Shown one piece after another: positions 24,210-26,720 of a stretch of DNA of 64,000 nucleotides. Positions within the stretch are counted from its first letter, which is position 1; the number at the start of each line of letters is the position of its first letter. The notes beneath the pieces were generated by a model. That model was not told the origin of the DNA and searched no databases. It worked only from the letters and a program-made list of their open reading frames with translations. A program made the translations under genes and the position numbers. The DNA is from a virus (Duplodnaviria > Caudoviricetes): positions 64,001 to 128,000 of the IMG/VR virus record IMGVR_UViG_3300012953_000012; one strand, given 5' to 3'.

Positions 24210-24224
24210 AATAGTTGCCCTATA
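24210..24224 (+). promoter_or_regulatory. Class L motif AATAG-ttgcc-CTATA
   Basis: Intergenic, upstream of 24330 operon. Confidence 0.65.
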
Positions 24225-24329
24225 CGCCCTCTCCCGGAGAGAGGTTTTGCCCACAAAAACCGTTGCACCTTCACCCGAGGGCGTGGCTCTGCGGCGCATC
24301 GACCGAAAACATCAGCCCGGAGCCTTTTC

Positions 24330-25577
24330 ATGCCTGACCCCACTCCGAGTCAGATCCAGCAAGCCCAGTCCAACATCAGCAACCTGATGGACTGGATCAA
24401 CCATCTGCACAACTACGAGCAGGACGTGATCAACGAGGTCTACGACCAACTGACCGTGTCCTCGCAGCACGATCCGGGGCAGGACTTCATCACCGCGATG
24501 ATGGAGGGAACGCTCAAGAGCATCGGGGCACTCCCTTTCCCAGGTGCGGGGGTGATCGCAGGGTTCACCAGCGCCTTCTTCAGCGTCTACTCCAAGACCA
24601 CGCCGCCCAGCCTCAAGGCTCAGTTTGCCTCGGTGTGGGCACGCTTCAACGCGACTTTTCTCCAGGCCAACCAGGACCTGTCGGACATCTACGCCGACGT
24701 AGCGGGGCACTGGAACGACACCTACACCGACCCTTCGGGCACCGAGTACACCATCTCCCAGATGGGGACAGGCGTGATCAGCGTCCCAGCGGACACGGCA
24801 CCTGAGTACCAGACCATGACAGACACGGCTGTGGCTGCGTACCGGGTCAGCCTCACCAGGTCCCAGATCGGAGGCAAGTGGAAGGTCCTTCAAGACACCT
24901 GCGGCATGAACATGCCTGGCTGGGACGACACGGACGCGAAGAACTGGATCCCAGGCTTCGTGAAGGACCACCCCGCCTTCTACATCCGCTACAGCAGCAT
25001 CCCCGGTGCGTGTTGCACCCCAGGGTCCGAGCAGGTCTACGAGGACCTCATCGGGCAGAGCCAACCCAACGTCTTCAATGACGGAAGCCCTGCCCCTGCC
25101 TCCTTGATGGACTGGCTCTGCAAGACGGACCAGTTTGGCAACGTCACCAACGCCAATGGCCTGGTGACCCGAGATGAGTTGTTCAACGGATGGGACGGTG
25201 CCCTCAAGACAGAAGGCTACTGCATCCCTTCCCCTGCCCCTCCGGTCCCGGTGGCTGACCCCAGCGAGCAGGACCTACGGGACGCGAAGCGTTGGCACAG
25301 GTTGTTCAAGCGCCACAAGAGACGCCGCCTGGAGTGGGGTGTCGTGAAGCGAGCCTACTCGGACGGTGACTTCTTCCATGCGCTGATGCGTGACCCCAGG
25401 GACGCGCTGGCCGACCACCTGGGAGTACCTTTCCCGGCGGGAGCCACCGTCGAGATCATCCGGGAAGAGCCCGGTCAGTACAAGTTGGTCCTGCCCCTGG
25501 CGGGTATTGACTTCAAGAAGTTCAAGAAGCACAAGAAGGGCTGGCTCCAGCGCCTGTTGGGATGGATAAAGAGATGA
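24330..25577 (+). CDS. Helical-bundle protein with C-terminal NHLP-leader-like domain and cationic amphipathic tail
   Basis: GGAG RBS; VKRAYSDGDFFHALMRDPRDALADHLGVPFPAGATVEIIREEPGQYKLVLP matches nitrile-hydratase-like leader pattern. Confidence 0.65.
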   Translation: MPDPTPSQIQQAQSNISNLMDWINHLHNYEQDVINEVYDQLTVSSQHDPGQDFITAMMEGTLKSIGALPFPGAGVIAGFTSAFFSVYSKTTPPSLKAQFASVWARFNATFLQANQDLSDIYADVAGHWNDTYTDPSGTEYTISQMGTGVISVPADTAPEYQTMTDTAVAAYRVSLTRSQIGGKWKVLQDTCGMNMPGWDDTDAKNWIPGFVKDHPAFYIRYSSIPGACCTPGSEQVYEDLIGQSQPNVFNDGSPAPASLMDWLCKTDQFGNVTNANGLVTRDELFNGWDGALKTEGYCIPSPAPPVPVADPSEQDLRDAKRWHRLFKRHKRRRLEWGVVKRAYSDGDFFHALMRDPRDALADHLGVPFPAGATVEIIREEPGQYKLVLPLAGIDFKKFKKHKKGWLQRLLGWIKR

Positions 25578-26584
25578 AGATTGGAATCTGGCACGAAGCA
25601 ATCGTTGGCAAACCCGCCACGGACGAGGACACCTTCAAGGACTACGCCGGGAAGTACGTCCAGTTCATCAAGGACAACGGCCTCAAGCGAGCCTTCTTCA
25701 TCCTGATGTGCCCAGACACCCCGGCAGGCACCTACGCGAAGCAGGGCTGGCTCCAGAAGTACTGGCTTGAGCAACTGCCTGCCGACTGCGAGGCCGGACT
25801 GGTGATGGACACCGAGGCTCAGTGGCCGTGGCCCGGAGCCGCGAAGACCTTTGATCCCGGCGACACGATGGAGATGGCCTTCCGGTTCGTCGATGCGATG
25901 AACAAGTCGTCGAGTGGCAAGCAGATCACCTGCCTGGCCTTCGACTACGAGAACGTCAACGTCTACTACGGCGCACAAGGCGAGGCGTGGATCGAGAAAC
26001 TGTGGAAGCAGTACTGGCCCAACGTGCCTCTCGACTACGGCTACGCACCGAAGGGTCCGCCTCCCAACGACCAGGGCAACCACTCCTACCCGGAGATCTA
26101 CTGGGTGGGTGAGATGGCTGACTGCGGTTGCACGGGCGACGAAGGCCCCAACTGCCGGTGCCCCAACACCCCCTACTGCAAGTACAACGGCGACCCCGAT
26201 GCTCTGTTGGCAGGGCCTCTGGGCGAGTACATCGAGAACCACAAGGCGTGGCTCTCCCAGGACAACGTGTGGCCCATGTTCAGCCTGGAGTCACTGTCGA
26301 AGCCCGCGTGCATCGCCGCTCCGTACACGTCCCACAACGCTTGTGGGATCATGGACGCTTTCGGCACCTGGTCGAAGGCGGACTTCCTGAAGTTCCTGGA
26401 TGCCGTGGAAGCGAAGTACGGGATCAAGCAGGCCATGATGTACGAGTGGCAGTACGTTCCCGAGAAATGGCTCACTGAGGCTGAGGTCACGGAGTACCAG
26501 GACGCCGAAGAGGTCGGTTTCTGGGGTCTGCTCAAGATGCTGTGGGGCCTGTTCACCGGCTGTTTCAAGAGAGGCAACGGGTGA
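25574..26584 (+). CDS. Putative TIM-barrel glycoside hydrolase (GH18-like)
   Basis: ATGA overlap; alternating beta/alpha pattern; ITCLAFDYE at predicted beta4; AMMYEW at predicted beta8. Confidence 0.5.
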   Translation: MKIGIWHEAIVGKPATDEDTFKDYAGKYVQFIKDNGLKRAFFILMCPDTPAGTYAKQGWLQKYWLEQLPADCEAGLVMDTEAQWPWPGAAKTFDPGDTMEMAFRFVDAMNKSSSGKQITCLAFDYENVNVYYGAQGEAWIEKLWKQYWPNVPLDYGYAPKGPPPNDQGNHSYPEIYWVGEMADCGCTGDEGPNCRCPNTPYCKYNGDPDALLAGPLGEYIENHKAWLSQDNVWPMFSLESLSKPACIAAPYTSHNACGIMDAFGTWSKADFLKFLDAVEAKYGIKQAMMYEWQYVPEKWLTEAEVTEYQDAEEVGFWGLLKMLWGLFTGCFKRGNG

Positions 26585-26585
26585 C

Positions 26586-26720
26586 GTGGATGACTTCTGG
26601 GACGCACTGCTGAGAGGGTTGGCTGGAGATAGCAACGACCGAGAGGTCACGAAGTACTTCGTGTGGGCCGGGTCGGTCGTGATCCTCGGCCTCGTAGGGC
26701 TGCTGCTGTACACGTCCTGA
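26586..26720 (+). CDS. 44-aa single-pass membrane peptide (absent from ORF track)
   Basis: GTG start 1 nt after upstream stop: MDDFWDALLRGLAGDSNDREVTKYFVWAGSVVILGLVGLLLYTS. Confidence 0.55.
   Translation: MDDFWDALLRGLAGDSNDREVTKYFVWAGSVVILGLVGLLLYTS

Follow-up and report, generated by a model that had tools for sequence, protein, structure and literature searches.

A glycosidase-like TIM-barrel gene with exchangeable neighbours in an apparently late locus of an uncultured marine jumbo phage

Positions 24,210 to 26,720 of a 64,000-nt stretch of virus DNA (hereafter the window) contain three tightly coupled plus-strand genes amid minus-strand genes. The window corresponds to bases 64001-128000 of a 205,564-bp IMG/VR virus record (IMGVR_UViG_3300012953_000012, here G000; GC ~62%), for which CheckV estimates a completeness of 46%. 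The protein encoded by gene 1 is also encoded, in identical form, on a 258,585-bp contig, and the source is therefore a jumbo phage from metagenomes, an uncultured marine one. Against the GenBank phage collection, neither nucleotide nor protein searches return a match. A previous, sequence-only reading of this DNA took the three genes (a 'helical effector', a glycosidase and a 44-aa membrane peptide) for a single candidate cassette, serving either an alternative lysis pathway or toxicity against eukaryotic or fungal targets. Here, we describe that the trio is not a conserved unit. Gene 2, which encodes a glycosidase-like TIM-barrel protein, is the conserved element of a variable and apparently late locus. 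The best explanation, to which we assign a probability of roughly 0.4, is a late, lysis-associated module that hydrolyses envelope glycans, with gene 2 as its core and with swappable partners. Coordinates are collected in Table 1.

A glycosidase-like barrel in an orphan viral family

The AlphaFold2 model of the gene 2 product (predicted local distance difference test score, pLDDT, 78) consists of eight beta/alpha units that form a TIM barrel, with a Cys-rich insert of low model confidence (residues 182-206) and an amphipathic, helical C-terminal tail. In Foldseek searches, GH18 chitinases rank first (E 7e-6, template modelling (TM) score 0.42-0.45), followed by PslG and Cwp19. VIA-align gives the highest scores to the GH153 domain of PgaB (Z 14.4) and to Cwp19 (Z 13.9; ~240 residues, root-mean-square deviation 3.9), with many GH18 enzymes, the cortex-lytic SleL among them, at Z 12-13. 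A shape search of the ESM-Atlas returns generic TIM barrels, among which the best TM-score by query belongs to an Amidase_3+GHL10 wall-hydrolase cluster. In the model, strand 4 covers residues 124-128, and D128-Y-E130 follows it. The catalytic Asp of GH18, GH20, GH153 and GHL10 (Cwp19) enzymes is located at the end of strand 4 (PMC5933820, PMC5765458). Both D128 and E130 are invariant in 26 out of 26 family sequences, down to 36% identity, as are H11, D83, E85, D158, E178, Y180, W181, E184, E243, D265, Y294 and E295; acidic residues at further strand ends are thus among the invariant ones. The predicted fold and active-site geometry support a glycosidase, and the glycosidase label given to gene 2 from the sequence holds at the level of fold, by the model as well as by both structural comparisons.

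Resemblance to the GH18 family (chitinases, endo-beta-N-acetylglucosaminidases, SleL) extends in the model to the (beta/alpha)8 barrel, the D-x-E at the end of strand 4 and conserved aromatic residues on strands 6 and 8. However, of the full DxxDxDxE signature only the last D-x-E is present, the Cys-rich insert sets gene 2 apart, and the protein has neither a carbohydrate-binding module nor a signal peptide, opening directly on strand 1. PgaB (GH153) and Cwp19 (GHL10), the structurally closest proteins, act on envelope polymers that contain N-acetylglucosamine (GlcNAc), namely poly-N-acetylglucosamine and peptidoglycan, respectively; yet they are only 8-10% identical to gene 2 and are secreted or periplasmic bacterial proteins, whereas gene 2 is viral and carries an amphipathic C-terminal helix. 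At the sequence level, gene 2 matches no family in Pfam (E <= 1), PHROG, NCBIfam or PADLOC, including the catalytic and wall-binding domains of canonical endolysins in the first three, and its profile finds chance-level matches only among Protein Data Bank (PDB) sequences. Membership of GH18 is not supported by the sequence models.

Homologues of gene 2 number 31 with a single-sequence search and 47 with a profile (counted as clusters), all of them unannotated metagenomic proteins. The closer members (46-83% identity) are encoded on phage-like contigs of 10-270 kb, while members at ~31% identity are found on contigs of 115-131 kb that also encode HSP70, a polyprenyl synthase and an RNA polymerase subunit, one of these contigs being a giant-virus bin (GVMAG). 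A pattern scan of 185,579 species genomes confirmed a single homologue, in a Parachlamydiales bin. This gene (L031:3233-4219, on contig VFKH01000033.1 of a metagenome-assembled genome; 37% identity) adjoins efflux-pump genes, and it may have come from a giant virus by transfer or be an artefact of binning. Judged by these searches, gene 2 belongs to a family of glycosidase-like TIM barrels that is a sequence orphan and nearly confined to viruses, spread over jumbo phages and eukaryotic giant viruses and without a characterized member.

Conservation of the three genes across relatives

Co-occurrence was judged by tblastn of the three proteins against all fetched contigs of relatives (loci numbered with an L). 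Besides the window, genes 1 and 2 are adjacent and overlapping in L011 only. L010 encodes a gene 1 homologue (78% identity) without gene 2. L006 and L007 share the left flank of the window, consisting of a GIY-YIG gene and a 302-aa gene, but have a 265-aa gene and a SnoaL-like gene at the place of gene 1; in L006 (1628-2804), these encode a protein with hydrophobic segments and a SnoaL-like protein of 128 aa. In L019, where gene 2 is 81% identical, an in-frame internal deletion has cut gene 1 down to a 41-aa remnant. This remnant (L019:5903-6010) keeps the promoter motif, the first ~35 codons, the last few codons and the ATGA coupling to gene 2. More distant gene 1 homologues reside in ordinary bacterial neighbourhoods, with no gene 2 nearby.

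Gene 3 has no homologue in any of the related loci. Since gene 1 is deleted, replaced or absent in most relatives and gene 3 lacks a homologue, gene 2 is the conserved element of the locus, and the proposal of a three-gene cassette does not stand: the co-occurrence check suggested with it finds genes 1 and 2 together only in the window and L011, and gene 3 nowhere else. The neighbours of this conserved, apparently late enzyme gene are thus freely swapped among related giant phages.

Downstream membrane genes and a possible role in lysis

A membrane protein is encoded directly downstream (<=300 nt) of the gene 2 homologue in seven out of ten distinct phage contexts. Membrane genes make up 13% of the filtered open reading frames (ORFs) of the source genome (binomial P ~7e-4), although three points weaken this count as an argument for lysis: the ten contexts are partly related, membrane proteins were called by a crude hydropathy rule, and the 300-nt limit is liberal. 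The downstream proteins vary in size and build: gene 3 (44 aa) in the window, an ATGA-coupled 128-aa protein in L019, a helix followed by a coiled-coil-like tail in L011, a 139-aa protein and then a 101-aa helix plus coiled coil in L002/L021, a 142-aa protein with two helices in L027/L028, a 112-aa protein with an N-terminal helix plus coiled coil in L005/L022/L026 (with a weak match to Rz-like spanins, E 5e-4), and a hydrophobic helix in L009. They are not homologous to each other. Holins, too, are usually non-homologous among phages. Endolysin-like genes are found near members of both families: a PG_binding_1 protein matching endolysin PHROGs is encoded 420 nt downstream of gene 2 in L019 (7445-8299), and the gene 1 homologue of L010 lies 3.5 kb upstream of a PG_binding_1+GH25 endolysin.

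In the mechanism that we favour, the gene 2 protein would be made in the cytoplasm, would carry a GH18-type-like active site formed by the invariant D-x-E, and would cut an envelope polymer of the GlcNAc or N-acetylmuramic acid (MurNAc) type at the end of infection, with peptidoglycan as our best guess. It would act at the inner membrane, probably held there by its C-terminal amphipathic helix, and its partner would be whichever small membrane protein is encoded just downstream, which is the tail-anchored 44-aa peptide in this phage. Gene 1 would be an optional, swappable first gene of the operon; its protein probably reaches the same membrane, because it has a similar cationic amphipathic tail. 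Should gene 2 prove to be a wall or envelope hydrolase, the phage lysins would gain a new type of catalytic scaffold, which would come with an unusual tail for membrane binding.

This arrangement resembles the lysis cassettes of phages (holin, endolysin and spanins) in its late-type signal, in the coupling of a wall-hydrolase-like gene without signal peptide to a small membrane protein, and in the membrane, Rz-like and PG-binding endolysin-like neighbours of relatives. It differs from them in that gene 2 falls outside the known endolysin families, the single helix of the 44-aa partner is located at its very C-terminus, the partners vary by lineage (one of them being protease-like), and a canonical SLT enzyme is encoded elsewhere. 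The lysis interpretation put forward earlier keeps circumstantial support for gene 2 only (a fold like that of GlcNAc-polymer cutters, the late motif, no signal peptide, membrane neighbours in 7/10 contexts, an endolysin-like gene in L019), while gene 3 lacks the charged C-terminal tail of holins.

Several observations speak against a lysis role. The contexts of L006/L007, L008 and L020 have no downstream membrane gene, and those of L008, L006 and L020 are replication or repair clusters. The membrane protein of L019 (7020-7406, 128 aa) contains an HExxH motif, and its match is to phrog_15610 ('protease', E 3e-23), not to a holin. The structural scores of gene 2 are those of a generic glycosidase TIM barrel, with Foldseek TM values of 0.42-0.45 and many families within 2 Z; PF00704 (GH18) has no hit at E <= 1 anywhere in the genome, while giving hits in control genomes, and PF02638 (GHL10) does not match gene 2 at E <= 10. 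GTA_TIM (PF13547), a lead from a feature search of the Atlas, was rejected likewise, with no match at E <= 10. The distant family members in contigs of eukaryotic giant viruses point the same way, as peptidoglycan is not an obvious target there. Finally, the genome encodes an SLT lytic transglycosylase of 193 aa (G000 144418-144999, plus strand; L014:4418-4999), 16.4 kb past the end of the window. It scores above the cut-off (E 7e-9), its N-terminus includes a hydrophobic stretch, and its PHROG matches are to endolysin-type and virion lytic proteins; with such an anchor, it could be the endolysin of this phage. The earlier statement that no classical lysin is present is correct for the window, which has no SLT match, but not for the genome, where the suggested check for a canonical endolysin does find this enzyme; about half of the genome is missing from the record. 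Models for Phage_lysozyme, Amidase_2, PG_binding_1, M23 and M15_4 match neither in the window nor in the 205-kb record, leaving the SLT protein as the only canonical peptidoglycan hydrolase found in it. The SLT gene is followed by a gene for a 417-aa lipoprotein-like protein (145459-146712).

A rival reading is a cytoplasmic enzyme unrelated to the wall, either a glycosidase or a TIM-barrel enzyme of another kind, acting on nucleotide-sugars, on lipid- or protein-linked GlcNAc glycans or on modified DNA, in a function common to jumbo phages and giant viruses. The distribution of the family over both groups fits such an enzyme, as does the lack of a signal peptide and of a wall-binding domain, and the conserved cysteines of the insert could bind zinc in a reducing cytoplasm. 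Moreover, several gene 2 contexts adjoin genes for Dam or other DNA methylases, UvrD, an exonuclease or a ligase, although DNA-metabolism neighbours are common in any large phage and are weak evidence here. The closest folds, however, are those of polymer-cleaving glycosidases, membrane-protein neighbours are enriched, and endolysin-like genes lie near in L019 and L010. Taken together, we regard a cytoplasmic role as rather unlikely.

The late-promoter-like motif

A copy of a late-promoter-like motif precedes gene 1, in the variant form CGAATAG-N5-CTAT of the CGGTAG-N5-CTAT class. Its core, TAG-N5-CTAT (24212-24223), occurs 16 times in the window, where 0.67 copies are expected, and the perfect CGGTAG-N5-CTAT has 18 copies in the genome. 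The same variant is kept in L006 and L007, while in L011 and L019 a canonical CGGTAG-N5-CGAT precedes the gene 1 homologue or its remnant by ~35 nt. The motif is therefore found upstream in the source phage and four relatives, regardless of the identity of the first gene. From the class of this motif, we infer that the operon is transcribed late. The claim that the operon has a class L motif of its own is right as to its presence, but the copy is a variant whose core is palindromic and lies 107 nt from the gene 1 ATG, so that its direction in the source genome is putative; the copies of the relatives help to orient it. The 13-mer around the motif is not repeated, and scans of 23900-27100 for sigma-70 promoters and intrinsic terminators detect nothing.

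Motifs of this class are common to tail and baseplate genes, which would also suit late-made proteins that are packaged in the virion or ejected, with genes 1 and 2 acting from outside on wall or surface glycans at entry. Jumbo phages often have separate wall hydrolases for entry and exit, and the source genome does encode an SLT enzyme besides gene 2. Neither protein is fused to a structural protein, though; the operon sits among non-structural minus-strand genes, and downstream membrane-protein partners fit lysis better than packaging. A role at entry is accordingly improbable in our estimate.

Three further features of the upstream region were recorded. An inverted repeat, GACCCCCCAC...GTGGGGTC (window 24176-24208), lies just 5' of the motif in the divergent intergenic region shared with a sigma-like gene, and is partially conserved in L006. 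The leader that precedes gene 1 (106 nt) is predicted to form a stem (window 24284-24324) that takes in the GGAG ribosome site (24316-24319); as a whole, this leader folds with modest stability (z -1.8 versus shuffles). The 8-mer GTGACCCC has 77 copies on the two strands of the 205-kb record (e.g. window 24174); as these are mostly inside coding regions, a promoter element is ruled out.

Gene 1: domains and homologues

Gene 1 encodes a protein with an N-terminal domain (helical plus beta), a domain resembling NHLP and the nitrile hydratase alpha subunit, and a cationic amphipathic tail. The earlier label 'helical effector' captures the partly helical N-domain, but not its beta part, the NHLP-like domain or the tail. 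The AlphaFold2 model has a pLDDT of 71, with residues 58-102 below 50. In family scans (Pfam, PHROGs, NCBIfam, PADLOC), NHLP is the only match, and no signal peptide is found. Thirteen close or distant homologues were identified; the +8 tail is conserved in the phage clade only.

The NHLP region matches PDB profiles of nitrile hydratase alpha (E 1e-7) and of the proteusin leader 8tb1 (E 8e-7), and Foldseek relates it to the proteusin leader 9cjx with a probability of 0.99. Against TIGR03793, gene 1 scores 39.7 bits (E 3.2e-10), under the cut-off of 50.9, and matches positions 2-60 of the 77 in the model; the last 17 positions, which contain the cleavage region, are unmatched. Distant homologues pass the cut-off, with P0042 reaching 101 bits and carrying two copies. 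By these matches, the domain is homologous, yet the protein is not a typical TIGR03793 member; a proteusin nitrile-hydratase-like 'leader' domain can evidently be a module inside a large viral protein.

The order of domains in gene 1 recalls the NHLP/proteusin leaders of RiPPs (peptides made by ribosomes and modified after translation), in which a leader is followed by a short C-terminal peptide. Gene 1 could thus be a precursor, with the 24-residue cationic amphipathic tail released or exposed as a membrane-disrupting peptide (disruptin- or bacteriocin-like) and gene 3 serving as an immunity or regulator peptide. The NHLP domain is well supported and stands right before the +8 tail, as a leader stands before its core in proteusin precursors, and a small membrane peptide is encoded in the same operon. 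Unlike in such precursors, however, gene 1 stays below the family cut-off, its cleavage region is unmatched, and a 310-aa domain without precedent among them precedes the leader. Among distant homologues, some stop just behind the NHLP domain and others have this domain twice and no tail. L019 can dispense with gene 1. Of the seven flanking window genes that were scanned, not one matches a Pfam family; models for maturation enzymes (radical-SAM, YcaO, C39) were not run genome-wide. We consider a precursor improbable as well.

The N-domain has no Foldseek match at E <= 0.001, and its best VIA Z is 5.6, with the weak part of the model over residues 58-102. A DinB-like metal-binding bundle was considered for this N-terminus and set aside, the matches being weak (Foldseek E 0.05-0.3, Z ~5). 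A profile of the domain finds 216 representative clusters, in which it occurs alone or, in long proteins, in the architecture [Tectonin or FG-GAP/TcdB-type propeller]-[N-domain]-[pentapeptide repeats]; one such protein has a type IX secretion tail. Look-alikes in the Atlas include viral and Ascomycota clusters. The N-domain is therefore widespread and uncharacterized, and is repeatedly combined with lectin propellers and pentapeptide repeats. Its architectures hint at a glycan-directed extracellular role in cellular organisms and do not demonstrate pore formation.

Such fusions, and the presence of the N-domain family in bacteria and apparently fungi, bear on the second half of the earlier proposal, a toxin or cargo pair in which gene 1 is a pore-forming or glycan-targeted effector and gene 2 its chitinase-like partner, directed against eukaryotic or fungal targets such as grazers. 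GH18 chitinases are indeed the best Foldseek matches of gene 2. Yet neither protein has a signal peptide, and comparison of the N-domain with pore-formers (Cry domain I, ClyA) yields no fold match (best Z 5.6 with a model of pLDDT only 71; Foldseek E above 0.05). The gene 2 family is almost virus-only, L011 is the one locus besides the window where genes 1 and 2 occur together, and gene 1, which L019 has lost by deletion, has distant bacterial homologues with no gene 2 nearby. The apparent promoter, moreover, is of a late virion/lysis type, in a virulent-looking jumbo phage. We therefore find a pore-former and chitinase cargo very hard to maintain.

Gene 3 and the amphipathic tails

Gene 3 starts with a GTG one base past the TGA of gene 2 and has a GAGAGG 10 nt upstream. 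Its product consists of an acidic N-terminal stretch of 24 residues and one C-terminal transmembrane helix (hydropathy 2.11 over 19 residues), and ends one residue past this helix. Codon-position GC is 0.62/0.40/0.80, against 0.55-0.69/0.42-0.47/0.75-0.84 in known genes, and overlapping frames differ; with 45 codons, this statistic has little power. RNA folding of the region is no more stable than that of shuffled sequence (z -0.57), and a structured terminator is therefore not a better explanation. Gene 3 is probably a real gene by these measures, and hydropathy agrees with the single C-terminal transmembrane helix that had been read from the letters. No family match is found in Pfam, PHROG, NCBIfam or PADLOC. 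As a holin candidate, gene 3 is small, has a transmembrane helix and adjoins a lysin-like gene, but it lacks a charged C-terminal tail, which holins typically have, and does not fall in a described holin family. A complex prediction for the products of genes 2 and 3 scores 0.00; as it was run without controls, it has no bearing either way.

A C-terminal amphipathic tail rich in W/F and K/R is encoded by genes 1 and 2 and by none of the other filtered ORFs of the genome (176 in total). Of the gene 2 homologues, approximately half carry one, behind a Pro-rich or acidic linker, and the rest end at the barrel. In their short, terminal form, their richness in W/F/L and K/R and the flexible linker in front of them, these tails resemble the C-terminal amphipathic membrane-targeting helices of MinD and FtsA, a resemblance that serves as a lead only; many gene 2 homologues, by contrast, have no tail at all. 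Given the transmembrane helix of gene 3 as well, the inner membrane may be where all three products come together.

A more adventurous version of this meeting would have the tails attach the gene 1 and gene 2 products to the membrane on its cytoplasmic side, with the 44-aa peptide as organiser. From there, gene 2 would cut GlcNAc/MurNAc precursors that are linked to lipid (lipid II or other undecaprenyl-linked glycans). If this were so, a large virus would have a new enzymatic means of halting envelope synthesis or setting off lysis, and the giant-virus homologues would act analogously on dolichol-linked glycans. We treat it as a long shot.

Gene layout and flanking regions

The stop codon of gene 1 (TGA) and the ATG of gene 2 at 25574 overlap as ATGA. 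This is the likelier start of gene 2, because MK(I/L)G is where most homologues begin. The reading frames, this overlap and the strands of both flanks uphold the description of a tightly coupled plus-strand unit amid minus-strand genes.

Table 1. Features of the three-gene locus, in window coordinates
Feature	Position	Strand	Details
Late-promoter-like motif	24207-24223	+	Variant CGAATAG-N5-CTAT of the CGGTAG-N5-CTAT class; from motif counts and relatives
Gene 1 (P0001)	24330-25577	+	415 aa; translation
Gene 1, N-domain	24330-25265	+	Residues 1-312; profile finds 216 clusters
Gene 1, NHLP / nitrile-hydratase-alpha-like domain	25275-25499	+	Residues ~316-390; PDB profile, TIGR03793
Gene 1, cationic amphipathic tail	25500-25574	+	Residues 391-415; net charge +8, hydrophobic moment 0.75
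Gene 2 (P0002)	25574-26584, or from alternative ATG 25562	+	336 aa or 340 aa; TIM-barrel glycosidase-like
Gene 2, putative catalytic D128	25943-25945	+	Invariant; end of strand 4
Gene 2, putative catalytic E130	25949-25951	+	Invariant; end of strand 4
Gene 2, amphipathic helical tail	26510-26581	+	Residues 317-340
Gene 3 (P0003)	26586-26720	+	44 aa; GTG start
Gene 3, transmembrane helix	26658-26714	+	Residues 25-43
Hairpin	26720-26739		7-bp stem, 6-nt loop; read from sequence

The hairpin lies between the stops of gene 3 and of a convergent minus-strand gene (26722-27480). It lacks a T-run and was not picked up by the terminator scan. Four genes of the minus-strand block to the right (26722-27480, 27483-28232, 28232-28744 and 28956-29564) match no Pfam family. 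This 3-kb block, comprising the five minus-strand genes between gene 3 and a homologue of a 141-aa gene (window 26722-29700), is missing from the syntenic L006.

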